DNA of 64,000 nucleotides. It comes from Somniosus microcephalus (taxonomy: Eukaryota). The position numbers were made by a program, and so were the translations under genes. Shown one piece after another: positions 37,940 to 55,984 of this stretch (its first letter is position 1; each line of letters begins with the position of its first letter). The DNA lies in the NCBI GenBank assembly GCA_052327205.1, contig CM126221.1, forward strand, positions 43,090,001 through 43,154,000, read 5' to 3'. The notes beneath the pieces were generated by a model that had not been told where the DNA came from, searched no databases, and saw only the letters and a program-made list of their open reading frames with translations.

Positions 37940-38809
37940 AAACACTTGGTTGAGCAAACATGTTCTCCAATTAAATACTGGGAAGACTGAAGCCATTGTT
38001 TTCGGTCCCTGCCACAAACTCTGTTCCCTAGCCACTGACTCCATCCCTCTCCCTAACATCTGTTTGAGGCTGAACCACATTGTTCGCAACCTTGGTGTCA
38101 TATTTGACCCTGAAATGAGCTTCTGACCACATATCCACAGCATAACAAAGACCGCCTGCTTCCACCTCTAACATCGCCCGTCTCCTTCCTTCCTTCAGCT
38201 CATCCGCTGCTGAAACCCTCATCTATGCCTTTGTTACCTCTAGATTTGACACTTCCAACGCACTCCTGGCTGGCCTCCACATTCCACTCTGTAAACTTGA
38301 GGTCATCCAAAACTCAGCTGCCCGTGTCCTAACTCGCACCAAGTCCCATTCGCCCATCACCCCTGTGCTCGCTCACCTACATTGGCTCCTGGTTAGACAA
38401 CACCTCGATTTCAAAATTCTCATCCTTGTTTTCAAATCGGTCCATGGCCTCGGCCCTTCTCTGTAATCTCCTTCAGCCCTACAACCTCCCGAGATCTCTG
38501 CGCTCCTCTAATTCTGCCCTCTTGAGCATCCCTGATTATAATCGCTCAACCTTTGCTGGCCGTGCCTTCTGTTGCCTAGGCCCTAAGCTCTGGAATTCCC
38601 TGCCTAAACCTGTCCGTCTCGCTACCTCTCTTTCCTCCTTTAAGACGCTCCATAAAACCTACCTCTTTGACCAAGCTTTTGGTCATCTGCCCTAGTTTAT
38701 CCTTCTGTGGATTGATGTCAATTTTTTTTGTCTTAAAATACTCCTGTGCAGTGCCTTGGGACGTTTTACTACATTAAAAGACGCTATATAAATACAAGTT
38801 GTTGTTGTT
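37940..38809 (+). mobile_element. L2 LINE 3' end
   Basis: LNTGKTEAI, HITPVLAHLHWL, GRAF..GPKLWNSLP and SFKT..KTYLF motifs; tail acgctatataaatacaagttgttgttgtt. Confidence 0.85.
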
Positions 38810-38814
38810 AAAGA

Positions 38815-40000
38815 GCTGGACTTTAAGGAGGAAGAGTGTAGAGAGGGAATTCTGGAACGATGTCAAGACGACAAAGTATGGCCACCAATGGTATGGGAAA
38901 GGGAGGGGGAGCTGCACAAGAGGCTGGAGTCAGAGGAAGAGAATATTTAATAAGAACATGGGAATTAGGAGCAGGAGTCGGCCATCCGGCCCCTCGAACC
39001 TTGGGGGAATTGTACAGCTGGGAAAGGTTACTGAGCAAGAGAGGAGTGAGGCGATGGAGGGATTTACACACAAGGACAAAAATGTTTAATTTGAGGCATT
39101 GGCATACTTGGAACAATTGTAGGTCAGCAAGAACAGAGGCGATGGGAAGTGGGACTTGGTGTGGAACAGGATACAGTCAACAGAGTCCTGGATGGCCTTC
39201 AGTTTACAGAGGGTGGAGGATGGGAGGCCGGCCAGGAAGACATTGGAGTAATTGTATCTGGAGGTGACGAAAGCGTGAAGCGAGGGTTTCAGTGACAGAC
39301 TGAGGTAGAGATGGAAGTGGGTGATATGCAGAAGTAGGCAGTCTTTGTGATGGAGACGATATGGAGTGGGAAATTCAGCTTGTGGTCAATTAGGATGGCA
39401 AGATTGTGAACAGTTTGGTTCAGCCTGAGATAGTGGCCGGGGAGGGGGATGGAGTTGGTGGCAAGGGCATGGACTTCGTATTGGGTGCTAGAGATGATGG
39501 CTTTGGTCTTCCCAATGTTTAGATGTAGGTAATTACATCTCATCCAAGACTGGTTGTCAGGCTAGCAGTCTGGTAGCACAGAGCAGTGGAGGGATTGAGC
39601 GAGGTGGTGGAGAGGTAAAACTGGGTGTCATCACCGTACATGTGGAATTCCATGTATGCGGATGATGTCGCCGAGAGGCAGCATGCAGATGTGGAGGTTG
39701 TGGGTGGATCCTGGGGAACTTCAAAAGTAACTGGTGTGACGGGTGCGTAGAAAAGCCATTGCTAGAGATACTCTGACTATAACCAGCTAGTCCAAGAGCG
39801 GAACCAAGCGAGGGCAGTCCCATTGAGCTGGACAGCGGAGGAGAGGTGTTGGAGGAAGGTGGAGTGATCTACTGTTTTAAAGGCTATTGGGAAGGATAAT
39901 GCATCACAGTCATAGAGAATGTTATTCATGACTTTGGTTCGGACTGTTTGAGGGGTGGGGTGGGGTGGTCAGGAACCTGATTGGAGGGAGTTGCAGGAGC
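38815..40000 (-). mobile_element. Degenerate L2 LINE fragment, tail-to-tail with the preceding L2; a short CR1-tail piece is inserted at ~38950-39000
   Basis: ORF 39289-39543 (LNIGKTKAI..LRLNQTVHNL..SITKTAYF) is homologous to 37960-38160 on the opposite strand. Confidence 0.75.
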
Positions 40001-41733
40001 GATGGGGATGGATCGAATACTATTGCAATAATGAATTATCTATCCTCAGTTAAAATTGAGGATATTCTTCAGCGATCCTATTTTATTTTAAATGAAAATG
40101 TTGTTTATCAGTAAATATTCTAAACTATTGGGTCTGTTATCTGAAAGTTCTGCCTATGATGAAAACTTATTTGTGCCTCTTGCAGTATTTTTGTCGAACC
40201 TGTTCTAGTTTTCTCATTCGTTTATTCTTTGCCAATTTGTTGGAACATGTTCAGCATTTTTATGGTGACAGAAGCCTATTTATGTGGCCTTTTTAGGCAT
40301 CATTTAAAATTAGGATTTAAGGTTCTTTTATCACTAGAACTTACTACTTGTAAATTTTAGTACCTACTTGAGGGTGAAACTTTTCTCCTTTGAGAGTGCT
40401 GCTGATCATTGTAGCAGAGGTAGAAAATAGTTTGTAGATTAAAAACCATATCCATAGATGACATTCATTCATTTAAATTTATTTTAAAGTTGATGGAAAT
40501 ATTCTTATTCATAGTTCTGGTGTTTGGTAGTACTTGAAAATGAAATTATTTAAACTCAGCTTCAATTACTTATAATAGTGTTTGGGAGGTCCTATAGTGT
40601 AATTTACTTCAACACTTTATCTTGTAAAATGGGTCTGTTGTCAGTTGTTTTTCTGGGACTGCAGTAGGAGGGTGTCATGATAGTTTGCACAGAGTTCAAG
40701 TGTCGTTGAATTGTATTTCGTACTGAAATGAATGCCAGCTTTATTTTATGGGCTTCTGTATGTGTGTGTTCTGATAGCAGTCAATATGACGGATGTACTT
40801 TAGCTTCCGAGTTGCATTCTTCAGGGCCGAAATCTTCATGCTGTTGACAACCATTGTGCGTGTTGGTGGCAAGCTGGAAGTGCATAATGTGGTAGATTAT
40901 CTGCCTCCATAGTTGAAATCTTTTCAAGTTGCTTGGGGGAGGGGGCCTGGTTAAACTTTTACAAAGACACGGGTCTCAGTGTTTCCCAGACAAGCTGGTG
41001 CTTGAGGGATGATCAGAGTTTATTTCCAAAGCTATAACCTGGTACTTTAAAAGAAATTCAAGATTTAATTTTCCTTATATTTATCTGGGACTATACTTGG
41101 ACTTGTTTCTGTGTAAACCAGTAAATAATGAACTCAAGGCTGTGTCATTATCTACAAATGTTGGCATGGAAAGGCTCCTTTCAAAAAGTGGAACTATGGG
41201 AAAAATTGGCTTGATACATTCCTGAATAAATTAGATAGTCATATGTTTACCTTTTAAATTAAACACTAATTATATGAAATACAACATTATATAAATAATA
41301 AGTGGTATCTTAAATACAGTGAAACACAAAATTCTTGTCTGTTGAATGTTCCACTTCAAGTAATTGCACATCTGCCATAGCAGTTTGTTATTATATATTT
41401 CTCTCACTTTTGTCATGGCTTCCTATGTTGTGAAAAGTAGTACTGAAATTTGGAAAAGATTAAAAAAAAATTGTGGTTTGGTTTTCATATTAAAGATAGA
41501 AATGAAATGTTTTCTTAAGTAATACAATTACTGTATGTCATTCAGTGTTTGTGTGAGTTCTCACTTGTTGCGACATAGTGATGAGTGCACAAAATGTTGA
41601 TTTGGCCAATGAATTTGAAAGTTCTATTCAAATGGCTGTACTCATCTGTGAAGGTATTGCAGTTTTTTGTAAATGCCATCCTGTTTTGACTCATCTTTGT
41701 ATTTTAATCAGTTGTATGATATCATATCGTGAC

Positions 41734-42052
41734 TGTGGTAAACCACGTTCACTATCGTATCACTGTTAGTAGTTAGCACTGTTCACCACTGTTCGTTATA
41801 ACTGTATCACTGACCACTATTGTATCACGGTACGAGGTTGCCTCTTGCCACACTGCTATACCTGGGATGACCACTGCCGACTCCGCCTTGGCTCCACCCA
41901 CCAGGCCAGGTATAAAGGTGAGCGACTGGCTGGTATTCCTCCTGCTTGGATCGGATCACCCACGAGAGTGGGCTCTGTTATTTAGTCAATAAAAACCTTT
42001 AGTCACCTTCGTAACTCTTCGCCTTTTATTGGAGGAATTGATAGGTATATCA
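41734..42052 (+). repeat. 5' LTR (TATAAA at 41911, AATAAA at 41988)
   Basis: Direct repeat of 46048-46366. Confidence 0.97.
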
Positions 42053-42071
42053 ATTTTATTGACTAAATTTA

Positions 42072-43082
42072 ATGATGTCCGACAACGAGTCACAACCGGC
42101 GGAGGAGCCACCAGCGCAGCTCCCAGGAGCACAGCCACACCAGCCAGCTTGGCTGCGAGCCCTCAGACCGCCGTACCTGGACCTGAACCCACGAGCAGCA
42201 AACTCAGCCGCAGACTTTAAACACTGGCTGGTCTGCTTCGAATCATACCTGAGAGAATCCAGCGTCCCTCAGGCATCCAAACTAAGTGTCCTGCAGGCAC
42301 AACTGAGCCCGAGAGTATACACTCTCATCGAGGACATGACTACCTACGAGACCGCCATCAACCTGCTGAAACAGAAGTACCGGACCCCGGTAAACTACAT
42401 GTACGCTAGGCACCTCCTAAGATCACGGCCGCAACAGCCAGGAGAATCAGTAGCCGAATTCTCACAGGCGCTATATGCACTCGCCAGGAACTGTGACTTT
42501 AAATCGGTGTCGGCAGCCGAAAATACTGAAGATAATATCCGCGACGCATTCCTGAAAGGCCTACGGTCCGAGTACTCACGGCAAAGACTGCTGGAAGCTA
42601 AAGACCTCAGCATGGAAAAAGCTGAAGCCCTCGCTATCTCCCTGGAAGTGGCCCACCAAGATCAGGAAGCATTCACCAGGTACTGCTCGCGACCCTGGGA
42701 CTCGGGCCCGACTCCTACCACAGCACCCTTCCCAGCGCCGCCCCCGGGACCTACCTCTGCGTCGGCGTCCCGGACCCGACCGGCCCCGGCACCGGCCCCG
42801 ACATCGGGCATCCGCGATCGGGCCGCCGGCTGTTTTTTTTGTGGCCAGGAGAAGCACCCGAGGTCGCGCTGCCCAGCCAAGAACTCCATATGCAAAACCT
42901 GCCTGAAGAAAGGCCACTTCTCCAAGGCCTGCAGGAGCGGATCCTCAGAGGCCAGCAGTGCCGCATGCGAACTATGGGGGCGGCCATCTTTGTTTAGGGC
43001 AACTGAGGCCAGCATCCCCACACATGAGTCATGGGGGCGGCCATCTTTGATTAAGGCAACCGACCCCAACAGTGCCTCGTGA
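42072..43082 (+). CDS. gag: Gypsy Gag (336 aa)
   Basis: QQPGESVAEF major-homology-like motif, IRDAFLKGL, and two Cys/His knuckles CFFCGQEKHPRSRC and CKTCLKKGHFSKAC. Confidence 0.9.
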   Translation: MMSDNESQPAEEPPAQLPGAQPHQPAWLRALRPPYLDLNPRAANSAADFKHWLVCFESYLRESSVPQASKLSVLQAQLSPRVYTLIEDMTTYETAINLLKQKYRTPVNYMYARHLLRSRPQQPGESVAEFSQALYALARNCDFKSVSAAENTEDNIRDAFLKGLRSEYSRQRLLEAKDLSMEKAEALAISLEVAHQDQEAFTRYCSRPWDSGPTPTTAPFPAPPPGPTSASASRTRPAPAPAPTSGIRDRAAGCFFCGQEKHPRSRCPAKNSICKTCLKKGHFSKACRSGSSEASSAACELWGRPSLFRATEASIPTHESWGRPSLIKATDPNSAS

Positions 43083-46005
43083 GCTACGGGGGCAGCCATC
43101 TTCTCCGTCATTTTGCCCTACCTCGTGGGAGACGCCATTTTACTCACCACGCCCGACCGCCTCGCCCGCAGATGACAACGACTCGCTCAGCTACACACTA
43201 GCTTCCGTCACCCTGGACCAAGCCCGCCCGCACCATCTGTCCAAGTCAATGATGGACATCAAAGTGAACGGCCACGCCACGACCTGCCTGTTCGACAGCG
43301 GAAGCACGGAGAGCTTCATCCACCCAGACACGGTGAGCCACTACTCCCTCTCTGTCCTACCAACGCGCAGCCGAATCTCGATGGCATCGAGGTCCCACGC
43401 CACGGACATCAGCGGCTACTGTGTCGTGACCCTGTCGGTTAAGGGCACGGAGTATAAAAACTTTAAACTCCTCGTCCTCCCCCATCTCTGCGCTGCCGTC
43501 CTACTAGGGCTGGACTTCCAATCCCACCTCCAAAGCGTAACCCTAGCATACGGTGGACCCCTCCCCCCACTCACAGTCAACAACCAGCAAACGTTAAACC
43601 GCCCACCGCGTAACACCTGCAGCCTCTCCACCCTCAAGGTCCCGCCACCCTCTCTGTTTGCTAACCTTACCCCTGACTGCAAACCCGTCGCTACCAAGAG
43701 CAGGCAGTATAGCGCCGGGGACAGAGCCTTCATTAGCTCTGAGGTGCGGCGCCTCCTGAAAGAGGGCATTATCGAGGGGAGCAGCAGCCCCTGGCGTGCC
43801 CAGGTCGTAGTCGTAAAGACCGGCGATAAAAACCGCCTGGTCATCGACTACAGCCAGACCATAAACAGATATACCCAGCTGGACGCATACCCCCTCCCCC
43901 GCATATCTGACATGGTCAATCAGATTGCACAGTATAAAGTATTCTCGACCATCGACCTGAAGTCGGCCTACCACCAACTCCCTATCCACCCTGAGGACCG
44001 CCAGTATACCGCCTTCGAGGCGAATGGGCGCCTATACCACTTCCTTAGGGTCCCCTTCGGTGTCACTAATGGGGTCTCGGTCTTCCAAAGGGAGATGGAC
44101 CAGATGGTTGACCAGAACGAACTGCAGGCTACATTCCCCTACCTAGATAACGTCACTATCTGCGGCCGCGACCGGCAGGAACATGACGCGAATCTGGAGA
44201 AATTCCTCCGTACGGCCCAACGGCTGAACCTCACCTACAATAAGGAGAAATGCGTGTTTAACACCACGCGCCTTGCCATCCTCGGCTGCGTAGTGGAGAA
44301 CGGAATCATCGGCCCCGACCCAGGAAGAATGCGCCCCCTCATGGAGCTACCCCTCCCCCACTGCCCTAAAGCACTTAGGAGAACCCTGGGGCTTTTCGCC
44401 TACTATGCCCAATGGGTACCCAATTACGCGGACAAAGCCAGACCCCTCCTGAAAGCCACTTCCTTCCCCCTCACGGAGGAGGCGTGCGCGGCCTTCTCCC
44501 TCATTAAGGGAGACATAGCCAAGGCCACGATGCACGCAGTGGACGAGTCCATCCCCTTCCAGGTGGAGAGCGACGCATCCGACTTCGCCTTAGCCGCCAC
44601 CCTAAACCAGGAGGGGAGGCCAGTGGCCTTCTTCTCAAGGACCCTACAGGGCCCCGAGATCCGACATTCGTCGGTCGAGAAAGAGGCCCAGGCGATCGTG
44701 GAGGCAGTACGGCGCTGGAGGCACTACCTGGCAGGCAAACGATTTACCTTCCTCACCGACCAGCGTTCGGTGGCTTTCATGTTTAATAACAAGCTGAAGG
44801 GCAAAATCAAGAATGACAAGATTTTGAGATGGAGAATCGAGCTCTCCACCTACGATTATGAGATCTTGTACCGGCCAGGCAAGCTGAACGAATCCCCTGA
44901 TGCCCTTTCACGAATGACATGCGCCAGCGCGCATATCGATAGGCTTCAGACCCTCCACGACCAGCTCTGCCACCCCGGAGTCACCAGACTCTACCATTTC
45001 ATTAAGGCCCGCAACCTGACCTACTCCATCGAGGAGGTCAGGACCATGACCAGGAACTGCCAGACCTGTGCGGAGTGCAAACTGCACTTCTATAGGCCGG
45101 ACCGAGCAAGCCTGATCAAGGCCACCCGCCCCTTCGAGCGCCTGAGCATCGACTTTAAGGGGCCCCTCCCGTCCTCTGACCGTAATGTGTACTTCCTCAA
45201 CATCGTTGATGAGTACTCCCGTTTCCCCTTTGCCTTCCCCTGCCCCGACATGACCAGTAGCACGGTCATTAAGTGCCTGAATGCCCTCTTCGCCTTGTTC
45301 GGGTTCCCGAACTATATACACAGCGACCGGGGCTCCTCCTTCATGAGCGAGGAACTCCGGCAATTCCTCCTAGAGAGAGGTATTGCAGCAAGCAGGACCA
45401 CCAGCTACAACCCCAGAGGTAACGGTCAGGTGGAAAGAGAGAACGCGACGGTATGGAAGGCCGTCCTCTTAGCCTTAAAGTCTAAGGGCCTCCCAACCTC
45501 CCGCTGGCAAGAAGTCCTCCCGACAGCGCTGCACTCCATCCGGTCATTACTTTGCACGGCCACTAACACCACCCCCCATGAACGAATGTTCGTTTTCCCC
45601 AGGAAGTCGACTACGGGAACCACTCTACCAACCTGGCTGACCGCCCCGGGGCCGGTCTGGCTGCGGAAACACGTGAGGGCCCATAAAACGGACCCCCTGG
45701 TCAAGAGGGTGAACCTCCTGCACGCCAACCCCCAGTACGCCTACGTGGCGTACCCAGACGGGCGGGAGGACACTGTCTCCCTACGAGACCTCGCACCCTC
45801 AGCCGATCCGGAAACACCGCCACCACCCCCCCCAACCCCAGCCCAGGTAGACGGCATGCCGGAACCCCACGAGCCCTCGCCGACCACGCAAACACCAGCA
45901 TCAACACCGGATAAGGCACCAGCACCGGATAAGGCAACACCACCGCTGCGGCGATCGGAGAGGCTTACGAAGCCTCCGGACAGACTGACCTACCAGAATT
46001 GGTAG
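43072..46005 (+). CDS. pol: Gypsy Pol (protease, RT, RNase H, integrase), 977-aa open frame
   Basis: LFDSGS protease; IDLKSAYHQ, VPFGV and YLDN RT; SDASD..EKEA RNase H; H..H..CQTC and DFKG/SDRG/VERE integrase. Confidence 0.95.
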   Translation: MPRELRGQPSSPSFCPTSWETPFYSPRPTASPADDNDSLSYTLASVTLDQARPHHLSKSMMDIKVNGHATTCLFDSGSTESFIHPDTVSHYSLSVLPTRSRISMASRSHATDISGYCVVTLSVKGTEYKNFKLLVLPHLCAAVLLGLDFQSHLQSVTLAYGGPLPPLTVNNQQTLNRPPRNTCSLSTLKVPPPSLFANLTPDCKPVATKSRQYSAGDRAFISSEVRRLLKEGIIEGSSSPWRAQVVVVKTGDKNRLVIDYSQTINRYTQLDAYPLPRISDMVNQIAQYKVFSTIDLKSAYHQLPIHPEDRQYTAFEANGRLYHFLRVPFGVTNGVSVFQREMDQMVDQNELQATFPYLDNVTICGRDRQEHDANLEKFLRTAQRLNLTYNKEKCVFNTTRLAILGCVVENGIIGPDPGRMRPLMELPLPHCPKALRRTLGLFAYYAQWVPNYADKARPLLKATSFPLTEEACAAFSLIKGDIAKATMHAVDESIPFQVESDASDFALAATLNQEGRPVAFFSRTLQGPEIRHSSVEKEAQAIVEAVRRWRHYLAGKRFTFLTDQRSVAFMFNNKLKGKIKNDKILRWRIELSTYDYEILYRPGKLNESPDALSRMTCASAHIDRLQTLHDQLCHPGVTRLYHFIKARNLTYSIEEVRTMTRNCQTCAECKLHFYRPDRASLIKATRPFERLSIDFKGPLPSSDRNVYFLNIVDEYSRFPFAFPCPDMTSSTVIKCLNALFALFGFPNYIHSDRGSSFMSEELRQFLLERGIAASRTTSYNPRGNGQVERENATVWKAVLLALKSKGLPTSRWQEVLPTALHSIRSLLCTATNTTPHERMFVFPRKSTTGTTLPTWLTAPGPVWLRKHVRAHKTDPLVKRVNLLHANPQYAYVAYPDGREDTVSLRDLAPSADPETPPPPPPTPAQVDGMPEPHEPSPTTQTPASTPDKAPAPDKATPPLRRSERLTKPPDRLTYQNW

Positions 46006-46047
46006 TACACTTCACCTCGCCGGACTTAATTCTAAACAAGGGGTGAA

Positions 46048-46366
46048 TGTGGTAAACCACGTTCACTATCGTATCACTGTTAGTAGTTAGCACTGTTCAC
46101 CACTGTTCGTTATAACTGTATCACTGACCACTATTGTATCACGGTACGAGGTTGCCTCTTGCCACACTGCTATACCTGGGATGACCACTGCCGACTCCGC
46201 CTTGGCTCCACCCACCAGGCCAGGTATAAAGGTGAGCGACTGGCTGGTATTCCTCCTGCTTGGATCGGATCACCCACGAGAGTGGGCTCTGTTATTTAGT
46301 CAATAAAAACCTTTAGTCACCTTCGTAACTCTTCGCCTTTTATTGGAGGAATTGATAGGTATATCA
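46048..46366 (+). repeat. 3' LTR
   Basis: Direct repeat of 41734-42052. Confidence 0.97.
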
Positions 46367-46656
46367 GTGACGAGGTACAAATAATTTTTTCAAAACATTT
46401 CATGACTGTGATCCGTAGCTGAAAACATCCACTGTGAAACCTGAATTTGCTCTGCAGGTACAATACTTAAAATGATTCAGTGATGGGAGTTGAATATTGG
46501 AAGAATGTTTTATCATTAAGCATTGACAGCGGCAGTGCCGATTGTCATCCACTTCAGGTTTTGTAATGGACTCTGGAGCGTAGTCAGCCTCTTGTGTATT
46601 TTGTAAATTCATTGTCTATTTTTATGTTGTAGAGGTTGAATTTGTATGGTTATAAT

Positions 46657-51808: not shown

Positions 51809-54800
51809 TGTTACGTCCGTGTAATAATAAGAAAAGGACTGCAGAGAACAGTACAACAGGTGTTTACTCAACGTGGTTCAAACTGCAACTGAACTGTACA
51901 GATTACTACTCAACGTTACATAAAGGTGTGGTCACTGCCGGTACTAGAGTATATATGAGCTGTACAAAGTAGTTCCCCCCCCCTTAAAGGTACATACATT
52001 ACAATTCCTCCCCTTTTAGATTAACAGTACCATAACACTCATTTAACAATTAAGTATCAAACTAATTACAATTAACACTTTTAACATGCAACATTAGCTG
52101 AAAATAGTCTATTTATAAATTCAGTCTTTGGGGAGGCTTCCTGATCCTTTCTGGATAACGCCTTTCCCGAGTGTCTTGCTCTTGGTGCAGAGGCGATTCT
52201 GGCCCCCTGTCGTCGGTTGGTTCATCAGCTTCCGATGCTACTGTTTCTGGGGTAGATGCTACCCGTACGTCGGGTTCATCACCAGGTACGTATGGGTGAG
52301 GCATGGGGTTGACTTGTTCCTGTGACCCTAGGATCTGTCAGCATGGTGTCTCACGATGCTCTCCCCAACGTCCACTGTGTACATTAGTGGGCCCTGCCGT
52401 GTGCATATCGTTCCTGGCTGCCATTTTTCTGTTCAGTAGTCACGGGCCAAGACTGGTTGCCCTACATTGAAGCTCCTTGTTGGCTTCTCATGGATGTGCT
52501 GGAATTGCTTACTCTCAACATCTCTTCGTACGTTTGGTCTGAGCAAATCCAGGCGAGATCTTAACCTTCGGTTAAAGAACATCATGGCTGGGGCCTGGTT
52601 GGTGACTGCATGTGTCGCATGCCGGTAGGCGAACAGGAAATTGTCCACCTTGTGCTGCAGCGGAATGTTGTCATTGTACATAGCCTTTATTGCCTTGTTA
52701 AAGGTTTGTACGAACCTCTCAGCCAATCCATTTGTGGCTAGATGATACGGGGCGGATGTGTAATGCCATACCCCATTCTTTTTCAAGAACCTCCGGAACT
52801 CTTCGGACACAAACTATGGTCCGTTGTCGGAGCAAATCTGTTCTGGCAAGCCATTCCTGGCAAAAATGGTCCGTAGGACTGCAATAGTTTTCTCCGTGGT
52901 GGTGGAGGACATTTTGATGACCTCAGGCCATTTCGAGTGCGCATCCACGGCTATTAAAAACATTGAGTCCATGAATGGACCAGCAAAATCAATATGCACC
53001 CGTTGCCATGGAGATGAGGGCCACTCCCATGGGTGTAGAGGGGCCTGTGGTGGTGCATTTTGGGCTTTCTGGCATCCTGAGCAGCTCTTGGTCAGGCCCT
53101 CGATTTGTTTATCGATTCCCGGCCACCACACATAAGCCCTGGCTAGGCTTTTCATTTTTACCCCTCCCAGATGACCCTCATGAAGCTCATTGAGCACTCT
53201 CTCCCTTAACTTGGGTGGAATTACCACTCGGGATCCACACATCAAGGTCCCCCCGGCACACTGACAGCTGTTCTCTCCTTGTCGAGAATGCTGGCAACAG
53301 TGAGTCGCCATGTGCTGGCCATCCCTTCACCGTCAAATCATATACCCGAGACCGTGTCGGGTCATTTCGGGTTTCCTTTTCGATACAAGCATTAGTTACC
53401 GGTAGGTATTCAACTATAGTCGAATGGAATATTTCGACAGGATCCACTGCTGGTGCTTCCTCCGCAGTAGGCAGTGGCAGGCGTGATAGCCCATCAGCAT
53501 TTCCATGCTGTTTCGTGCCCTTATATTCAATCTCATAGTGGTGCGCCCCTAGAAAAAGTGACCATCTTTGTAGTCGTTGCGCAGTCATCACCGGAACACC
53601 CTTCTCTGGATTAAAAATGGAGACAAGAGGCTGGTGATCAGTCAGCAAGGTGAATTTCTGCCCGTGCAGATAGTGATTGAACTTTTTCACTCCCCACACT
53701 AGGCTGAGGGCCTCCCTGTCAATCTGGGTGTAGTTAGCTCGGCTGAGGTTAGTGATCGTGACGCAAAGGCTATTGGCCTCTCTGAGCCATCCGAGAATTT
53801 GTGTGACAGCACCGCTCCAATGCCTTTTAGTGTTCCGAGTCCTTGCTGGAACACTTCTTTCGCGTCAGTTAGGATCTTTGACAGTCGCCCAGGTGTGATG
53901 TCGTCATCCTTTTTGTCAGCCACAGTCAGTGCCTGTATGGAATGCCAATCCAGTTGTATTTTCCGGATCCATTCACGTCCCAGTAATGGTGGTCCTCCAT
54001 CTTGCAATACATACAGGTCTAGTTTTGGTGTTTCCTTACCATTATATATAACGGTCACCCTTATTTTTCCTTTGGGGTAGACTTTTTGCCCCGTGTACGT
54101 CTTCAAAATAATTTTTGTGTCTCTCAAGGGTATGTGTGAGAATAGCCGCTCGTAGTCCCGTCGGTTTATGACTGTTAGGGCTGATCCTGTGTCCAATTCC
54201 ATCTTTACCTGGACTCCTGCTATCTTGAGAGTGACCCAAATGGTTCGGTGATCCTCTGTTGTGATCACATTATGTAGTTTCAGACAACTCAGTTCCCTGC
54301 TTTCGGAGTCGTTATCACTCTTTTGTTCGTCTGAAGTATTCTCCGTTATCTTATGTACCACCTTGTACTTTCCTTTGGTCGGTTTCTTATTGCTGGTTTT
54401 CTTTCCCGACCTGCAGACTCGTGCTCTGTGTCCTACTTTTCCACACTGTCTGCACACTTTGTCTTTGAACCAGCAATCATTCTGGTCGTGTGTTGTTCTG
54501 CCGCAGCGATAGCACTTCTCTGTTCCATATGACATTTCGTTTGTGCCATATTCTTGTGGTCTCTGTTGTATCTCTGCAGCGCCCCGTGCTGCTGCTTCAT
54601 ATGATACCGCCATGCTGAAAGCCTTTTCCAGCGTAAGGTCCTTTTCAGATAAAAGCCGTTTCTGGGTTCATTCACTTTGAAGCCCACACACAAACTTGGC
54701 CCTTAAAGTATCTGCTAGTCCCGTTCCAAACTGGCAGTGTTTCGATAGCTTGCGCACTTCCGTTAAATACTCAGCATTACTTTCATCTTTATGCTGGTTC

Positions 54801-55984
54801 CTTTTGTGAAACTTAAATCTTTCTGCTATCAGCAGCGGTGCGGGGTTTAAGTGGTCCTGTAGGATTGACACTATGTTTTCAAAATCCTTTTCTACTGGCT
54901 TCTCTGGGGTTACTAGGTTTCGTAGTAAGCCATACGTTTTTGCATCCATTGAATTCAACAATACCAGCGCTTTCTTGTCATCTGGCACTTCATTCGCCTT
55001 GCAGTATACTTCTATGCGTTCAACATATGTCGTCCAATCTTCGACTTCATTGTTGAACGCTGTGATACTGCCACTCTTCGGCATTTTTGGGTGTGGTTAG
55101 ACTGGCTTAAAATGGCGTCTCCCGCGCTTTCCTTTCTTCCCCGCTGCGGCTTAAAATGGCGTCTCCCGCGCTGCTGCCAACGCCGCTCTCGGCGGTCCTC
55201 GTGGCAAATGGCGACGCCCTGTGGGTTTCGCGCACTGCTCCTGCGCTGCTGCCAACGCTGCTCTCTGTGGTCCTTGTGGCAATGGCAGCGCCTCGCGTTT
55301 TCCTGCGCGCCTCTCTTCCCCCGTTGACGCTGCTCGGCCCTTGAACACCGGCTGCTCTCTGCTCTCTCTCGTCTCTCTTCCCCCGTTGACTCCGCTCGGT
55401 CCTGAACACCGGCTGCGCTCTGCTCTCTCTCGTCTCTCTCCCCCATTGACGCCGCTCGGTCCTGAACACCGGCTGCGCTCTGCCCTCTCCCCCGTCGACG
55501 CTGCTCGGCCTTTTTCTGTGCCGCTCGGTCGGGCTCTAGCCCGCCGTTGTCCGGGAAGGGTCTGCGCAGTACCTGTTGCCAGCCCGTTTCGCTGGACCAC
55601 CGTGGCTGGAATCCAAGCCTGGCTCTCGACAGCCTCCCCTGCGATGCTCAAATCTCCGCTGGATGACTGGGCGGTTGCCCCTGGTCGACGCCCGTGCTTC
55701 TGGACTCGACCTTCTTCCACTGTTCTCCAGGAGCGAATCCCTGGGAGGTGATGCAGAGTTGCAGGTAGGTTCGAACTTGCTCGTCGCCACTGTTACGTCC
55801 GTGTAATAATAAGAAAAGGACTGCAGAGAATGGTACAACAGGTCTTTACTCAACGCGGTTCAAACTGCAACTGAACTGTACAGATTACTACTCAACGTTA
55901 TGTACAGGTGTGGTCACTGCCGGTACTACAGTATACATGAGCTGTACAAAGTAGTTCCCCCCCCTTAAAGGTACATACATTACA
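51809..55984 (-). mobile_element. Defective Ty3/Gypsy (Mag-like) LTR retrotransposon lacking RT
   Basis: LTRs at 51809-52003 and 55791-55984 (about 9 substitutions plus 1 indel), target-site duplication AAAGT, primer site TGGCGACGAG and polypurine tract aaaaggggaggaat. Gag (54668-55084), two knuckles, LDTGS protease, RNase H (IAFASRSL, TDHQPL) and integrase (LHEGH..CSGC, HIDFAGP, SDNGP, NGLAERFV), with several frameshifts. Confidence 0.93.
55100..55530. repeat. GC-rich tandem repeats in the Gypsy leader
   Basis: ~60-bp units ccccgttgacgccgctcggtcctgaacaccggctgcgctctgctctctc (3-4 copies) and a duplicated ggcttaaaatggcgtctcccgcgct. Confidence 0.8.

Follow-up and report, generated by a model that had tools for sequence, protein, structure and literature searches.

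Evidence that a young, chromodomain-less Gypsy retrotransposon of Somniosus microcephalus is probably primed by the 5' end of its own transcript

How does an LTR retrotransposon start reverse transcription when its 5' LTR is not followed by a tRNA-type primer site? The question is raised by an element in a window of 64,000 nucleotides of the Somniosus microcephalus genome (assembly GCA_052327205.1, contig CM126221.1, positions 43,090,001 to 43,154,000), to which all coordinates below refer. The element spans 41734 to 46366, with all its features on the plus strand, and had been described in an initial annotation as a young Gypsy with a 5' LTR ending at 42052. Our analysis confirmed this description: the 5' LTR (41734 to 42052) and the 3' LTR (46048 to 46366) are identical over 319 bp, begin with TG and end with CA, and are flanked on both sides by the 5-bp target-site duplication (TSD) GTGAC (41729 to 41733 and 46367 to 46371). 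Together with a polypurine tract (PPT) at 46034 to 46047, these ends place the element structurally in Ty3/Gypsy. The gag gene (42072 to 43082, 336 aa) encodes two CCHC knuckles (42831 to 42872 and 42891 to 42932), and the pol open reading frame (43249 to 46005) has the order PR-RT-RNase H-IN, with Ty3 as its nearest solved relative. No chromodomain was detected, as the last 201 aa of pol, which have a proline-rich tail, gave no Pfam match at an E value of ≤1. At the RT active site the motif reads YLDN (44140 to 44151); YxDN, not YXDD, was likewise found in 94 of the 120 closest Pol homologues; the element's family has young copies numbering in the thousands. In the literature searched, "YLDN" was not found in connection with a retrotransposon; a YVDN motif is reportedly mentioned for BEL/Pao elements in two papers.

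In the window copy gag and pol lie in different frames (43045 to 43249), and 11 of 13 copies sampled from its subfamily are open over 1.5 kb; the frame break is private to the window copy, despite its identical LTRs. The 3' end of gag contains a 57-nt tandem duplication (42948 to 43061, 77% alike). Elsewhere in the window, long imperfect inverted repeats (38014 to 39479; 149 nt, 70%) are perhaps an old DNA transposon or an inverted pair of retroposons.

No TGG-type primer site follows the 5' LTR, as had been stated in the initial annotation. A single spacer base (42053; also one base in most related loci) separates the LTR from a 15-nt segment (42054 to 42068) that is complementary to the LTR itself rather than to a tRNA 3' end. 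It is the exact reverse complement of 41980 to 41994, with pairing ending at 15 bp on both sides, and a 15-mer match in the LTR is expected by chance at about 1e-6. This perfect complementarity had been noticed before, along with the AATAAA inside the LTR arm (41988 to 41993, a putative poly(A) signal by sequence) and a gag ATG about 20 nt beyond the LTR, and both of these were recovered, the ATG at 42072. Because the 3' end of the arm faces the LTR edge, the geometry is primer-like, and we refer to 42054 to 42068 as the primer-binding site (PBS). As an internal control, a neighboring Gypsy on the minus strand (51809 to 55984) has an ordinary tRNA-type PBS starting with TGG at 55789. This neighbor is older, with 196-bp LTRs that are 95% alike, the TSD ACTTT, and decayed gag and pol genes.

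Folding of the leader, suggested earlier as a check, was carried out on 41935 to 42090 and yielded a z score of -3.04; an equally good fold was obtained in 1 of 200 shuffles, and the predicted pair probabilities of the 15-bp helix were 0.49 to 1.0. The hairpin proposed to straddle the LTR boundary (42036 to 42055) is present there. This U5-IR-like structure retains its ATTGAT...ATCAAT stem in 30 of 30 sampled copies, while its loop is variable, and it overlaps the 15-bp helix at 42054 to 42055. The U5 segment TTTTATTG, named as a competing partner, does lie at 42024 to 42031; its conservation did not hold up (7 of 30 sampled copies), so that it is a possible alternative partner but was ruled out as a conserved switch partner. 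Compared with the "pretzel" of Tf1, a central duplex and a U5-end hairpin are predicted in the leader, and a third duplex is not conserved. An Rfam search of 41700 to 42300 gave no match up to an E value of 5.

Sequence variation at 41986 and 42062, two positions that pair with each other in the helix, was first noticed in RNA reads. Host copies were then counted by sequence-pattern search of the genome: the junction of LTR end and PBS occurs 3858 times in 6.4 Gb, and a degenerate version of the pattern occurs 8422 times. Four classes at the pair 41986/42062 accounted for 7604 of these 8422 matches, namely C-G (3833), T-A (3351), C.A (408), and T.G (12). In 2 of 30 sampled copies, a second, neighboring pair was altered on both sides (CT/AG). 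Since covariation within the genome represents few evolutionary events, the wider test across relatives matters. Rays and sharks supply the closest Pol proteins (77 to 84%), followed, at about 60%, by cnidarians, an insect, a nematode, and many marine contigs; Gag relatives include those of sea cucumber, hagfish, crabs, and Hydra, and no relatives were found in viral contigs.

Distant relatives (46 to 64% RT identity) were examined at 67 metagenome loci. Thirty-two were testable, having a gag start and enough upstream DNA; in four the gag gene was too near the contig end, and the others had no gag start. The helix was found in 25 of the 32 testable loci and in 12 of 15 families, compared with 1 of 480 shuffles by the same criterion, and was absent from 3 of the 15 families and from one locus without RT. 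It comprises 11 to 18 bp, begins 1 to 3 nt after a CA, and has a different sequence in each family. In 8 of the 12 helix families, AATAAA or ATTAAA forms the end of the arm; in the other 4, the arm contains neither. In 11 of the 12 it is followed by (A/G)CC, which in the window element is an ACC directly 3' of the arm (41995 to 41997), a candidate mark of a cut site. Several relatives also have a 5-bp TSD; in an LTR-pair scan, ends were wrongly set on circular-looking contigs. Helix-bearing loci were scattered over the whole sample in an RT tree, and because this tree contained no named reference or outgroup, we leave the clade unnamed. The compensatory changes that had been proposed as a check are thus present both in host copies and across 12 of the 15 distant families. 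This covariation demonstrates pairing, not priming. The helix is real and conserved, and on the whole evidence, including that given below, its role is very probably in priming.

Several further features of the host copies were observed. One LTR type is combined with either of two gag haplotypes, whose sequences part about 150 nt downstream of the PBS; this is a recombinant subfamily. Some pattern matches are paired about 4.4 kb apart, which may suggest tandem elements sharing an LTR, by analogy with integrase-independent insertion of Tf1. One copy has a 5' LTR without the TATA region that has retained both arm and PBS.

A primer that is retained and copied predicts two kinds of trace: primer sequence following the PBS as a result of overcopying and, where primer and PBS are mismatched, progeny in a 50:50 ratio. 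Traces of the first kind were found in 348 host copies, whose PBS is prolonged, at the PBS position, as the reverse complement of the LTR. We examined 90 of these extended copies, drawn from the first 100 listed (the seven last and three near-duplicate places being omitted). After 22 rearranged or truncated copies had been set aside, 68 with a long 5' LTR and an intact arm were left, two of which share one duplicated junction. The copied length was at most 54 nt in 56 of the 68 copies, 50 to 54 nt in 18, and 53 to 54 nt in 12. Copies of 53 to 54 nt end 30 to 31 nt after the first T of the TATAAA box (41911 to 41916; spacing constant across sampled subfamilies), and this distance, TATA+30/31, is the usual spacing of a transcription start site. 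Half of the copies still running at 53 nt (12/24) stop by 57 nt; elsewhere, the stop rate per five-base bin was 0.04 to 0.20 before 53 nt and 0 to 0.09 after 57 nt.

The edge was also seen in a variant with a 2-nt deletion, the R region of which is 2 nt shorter. All 16 of its extended copies were retrieved, four of them overlapping the earlier set, and 12 had an intact arm. The variant's own LTR deletion was copied in all 12; five stopped at 51 to 53 nt, four earlier (33 to 49 nt), and three later (93 to 244 nt), so that the limit moves by 2 nt with the deletion. The base following the copied sequence was C in 14 of the 18 copies of 50 to 54 nt versus 11 of 38 shorter ones (p = 0.001), a comparison that is supporting only, as G or A is excluded by construction at some lengths. 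RT can copy an RNA cap, and an excess of C is as expected from such copying. In the CT/AG subfamily, the search for extended copies returned one rearranged locus.

Most extended copies, after the copied stretch, jump to internal element sequence or to the flank. Twelve of the 68 pass the inferred start, five ending at 61 to 152 nt and seven at 222 to 265 nt. Seven of the 68 span the whole LTR to its 5' end, and four of these seven go on into the reverse-complemented PPT and internal 3' end. Because 12 copies overrun the inferred start, a minor second route is called for, which may be DNA snap-back or the use of the arm's 3' copy as primer; the four inverted copies comprising all of U3, the PPT, and the internal 3' end may record the latter. 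In addition, we observed eight mini-insertions consisting of the 5' LTR, PBS, and copied primer, followed by a jump to the last 8 to 15 nt of U5 and by genomic flank. These look like integration-competent dead ends of the second strand transfer.

The second trace was sought in the C.A copies, nearly all of which belong to one subfamily (96 of 100 among the matches listed, hand count). This subfamily has 803 copies and C in the arm; among the 100 copies listed, the PBS letter was A in 52 and G in 48 (hand count). Both gag haplotypes were split among 30 copies aligned over 1.7 kb (2 A:4 G and 10 A:14 G), and no site in this alignment was linked to the PBS letter. The 52:48 split is a heteroduplex signature; 50:50 inheritance of primer and template PBS has been described for tRNA primers (PMC4549124). 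Since extended copies are necessarily derived from the primer strand, they are informative on the primer's letter: those of the mismatch subfamily had G, the arm's letter, in 12 of 12 cases (p = 1.5e-4 at 0.48). Overall, 13 of the 90 extended copies had no arm, and each of the other 77 matched its own arm.

On the strength of the 348 extended copies, the 2-nt shift of their limit, and the 52:48 split with arm-matching extensions, we regard the LTR arm as the probable primer. Our main reading, to which we assign a probability of roughly 84%, is that 42054 to 42068 is a PBS pairing with the element's own LTR arm and that the initial ~53 nt of the transcript (41942 to 41994) most likely serve as primer, which a cut just after AAUAAAA would release; the start at 41941/41942 is deduced from the copied-primer lengths. 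The data show pairing, covariation, 1:1 segregation, and LTR-derived sequence that has been copied into the place of the PBS and has its edge at TATA+30/31, while start site, cap, cut, and enzyme are inferred. The initial annotation had suggested priming without tRNA after the manner of Tf1-type elements. Its tRNA-free self-priming is strongly supported by the covariation, the copied-primer fossils, and the 1:1 segregation, but a primer of the Tf1 type is not, since the arm lies about 39 nt inside the inferred transcript and the primer measures about 53 nt.

Three other explanations were weighed. The helix might serve, as in HIV, to hide the AAUAAA of the 5' LTR, with a host RNA acting as primer and the extended copies arising as snap-backs of plus strong-stop DNA. 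Folding is in line with such a function, as the AAUAAA is predicted to be paired with a probability of 0.72 to 1.0 in the 5' context versus 0.02 to 0.54, mostly under 0.4, in 3' contexts, and snap-back predicts copies covering the entire LTR, such as 7 of the 68. However, it leaves unexplained both the edge at TATA+30/31 and a 1:1 split in which all extended copies match the arm. Moreover, the PBS sequence varies by family beyond what any fixed host RNA could pair with, Rfam gave no match up to an E value of 5, and 4 of 12 families have neither AATAAA nor ATTAAA in the arm. We consider this explanation improbable. Marginally less probable still is self-priming in which the main primer is the arm's 3' copy, located in the 3' LTR of the same or a co-packaged RNA and cut after AAUAAAA, in which case the genome RNA would loop closed. 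Covariation and 1:1 segregation are equally compatible with this route, and the 4 of 68 extended copies that traverse all of U3 into reverse-complemented PPT and internal sequence speak for it. Yet a primer from the 3' end would have no reason to end by TATA+30/31, as 56 of 68 copies do, with a sharp edge that moves with the 2-nt deletion, and cleavage of the 3' copy would presumably also delete the R required for strand transfer. Very unlikely, finally, is priming by a tRNA fragment or a mitochondrial tRNA with LTR complementarity as a by-product: although priming by half-tRNAs has been reported for certain lineages of Copia in the available part of PMC6317226, there is no TGG here, the site and the LTR arm vary together, both inside a family and from one family to another, and the sequence copied past the PBS is LTR, not tRNA.

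If the first ~53 nt of the transcript are the primer, replication may proceed as follows. Transcription would begin about 30 nt past the TATA box, at 41941/41942. The arm (41980 to 41994) then pairs with the PBS, as covariation shows, and is predicted to close a loop together with the U5 hairpin. By analogy with Tf1, the element's RNase H would cleave at or near 41994/41995, before the (A/G)CC, and thereby generate a 3' OH. RT would copy from 42053 back to the cut, so that the working R for the first strand transfer would lie 3' of the poly(A) signal. The primer is kept on the minus strand and copied by plus-strand synthesis, often to its 5' end, as the fossils record; the second transfer normally anneals only the first 15 nt with loss of the rest, and in a few percent of cases the overhang has become fixed in the genome. 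Finally, the same helix is predicted to hide the AAUAAA of the 5' LTR while leaving that of the 3' LTR exposed. The 5' poly(A) hairpin of HIV-1 reportedly pairs its AAUAAA; the window element shares with it the predicted pairing in the 5' context only and differs in the predicted partner, which is the PBS, located beyond the LTR end. A role of the helix in suppressing 5' polyadenylation, raised in the initial annotation, is predicted from folding only, and 4 of the 12 helix families have neither AATAAA nor ATTAAA in the arm. Two RNA-seq runs of the same species were dominated by both-strand read-through into the flanks and were uninformative: read starts did not accumulate at 41942, and neither ends at 41994 nor a poly(A) tail were seen.

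Self-priming has been assigned to Tf1/sushi, Tcn1, and TAR/Houba Copia elements in the available text of PMC10085805 and PMC6317226. Tf1 and Tf2 of Schizosaccharomyces pombe, Tj1, and Tf1/sushi chromoviruses are likewise Ty3/Gypsy elements with a PBS after the 5' LTR that is complementary to their own LTR-derived RNA, as far as the accessible portions of PMC10085805, PMC7175516, and PMC11042837 describe them. According to the same partial sources, the Tf1 group also resembles the window element in having a U5-end hairpin beside the central duplex and a primer that is retained and copied into plus-strand DNA, and the Tf1 primer is freed by an RNase H cut (PMC7175516). The primers themselves differ. 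That of Tf1 is described in these texts as the first 11 nt, paired over the whole length, whereas here about 38 unpaired nt would precede a 15-nt arm ending in a poly(A) signal. A short, fully paired 5'-terminal primer, the feature of Tf1/sushi, was thus not found; the copied primer runs about 38 nt past the arm, counted to the inferred start. Tf1/sushi elements, furthermore, carry a chromodomain at the integrase C terminus, while none was detected here and the RT motif is YLDN; chromoviruses usually have one CCHC knuckle, per the available text of PMC2577118, compared with two here. Independence from Tf1/sushi would rest on these domain features.

Among other groups, self-priming has similarly been predicted from LTR-PBS complementarity for Ty1/Copia elements of the TAR/Houba/Osr-1 type and for Tcn1 of plants, as stated in the accessible text of PMC6317226; these differ in belonging to another superfamily or to the chromovirus branch and in having plant hosts, and the sources seen in part give prediction only. 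The Mag lineage is similar in being non-chromoviral, in its two CCHC arrays in Gag, its short LTRs, and its wide animal host range, although two arrays, usual in Mag, also occur in Micropia/Mdg3 (available part of PMC2577118). No description of self-priming for Mag was found in the portions of the literature accessible to the search. The available text of PMC3601003, PMC4600332, PMC6934838, and PMC8220671 contained nothing further on the lineage of the window element. Identity with Saci2/lennie was ruled out on the excerpts seen, as the TSD is 5 bp here versus 4 bp there (PMC12471100, PMC4558846) and their PBS, unlike the present one, is reported to be complementary to a tRNA, that for Leu in lennie (PMC4558846). 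In retroviral PBS inheritance (tRNA Lys3/Lys5 in HIV/SIV), a primer/PBS mismatch also leads to 50:50 progeny (PMC4549124), with the difference that the inherited letter here comes from the element's own LTR and not from a tRNA. A search that was thin on subscription papers and Repbase reports brought up no report of a self-priming animal Gypsy outside the chromoviruses.

A broader scenario can be drawn, which we put forward tentatively and consider somewhat less probable than an even chance. An animal-wide lineage of chromodomain-less Gypsy elements may have evolved tRNA-free priming independently of Tf1, giving up the initial ~53 nt of its transcript, cap included, as primer. The same helix might silence the 5' poly(A) signal, a single structure thereby setting read-through, primer formation, and the extent of R. 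The RT of this lineage would work with Asn replacing the final aspartate of YXDD; the 5' end of the primer, including the cap, would be recorded in hundreds of fossils.

The mechanism of self-priming as such is already known; on the best reading, its version with a ~53-nt primer in a chromodomain-less Gypsy is a new variant, for which the genome gives unusually direct evidence of what the primer is and how long. The mistransferred copies and the 1:1 segregation of the PBS make primer and start site readable from an assembly, without an active element, and for such families PBS finders based on tRNA matching would come back empty or with spurious tRNAs. Self-priming has been shown for Tf1 of fission yeast and assigned to its chromovirus relatives and to certain Copia elements of plants. 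If a very abundant animal Gypsy, numbering thousands of young copies in one vertebrate genome, has a second version of different structure, the escape from tRNA priming would have arisen again and succeeded. Such an escape would also be expected to evade silencing by PBS-directed tRNA fragments.
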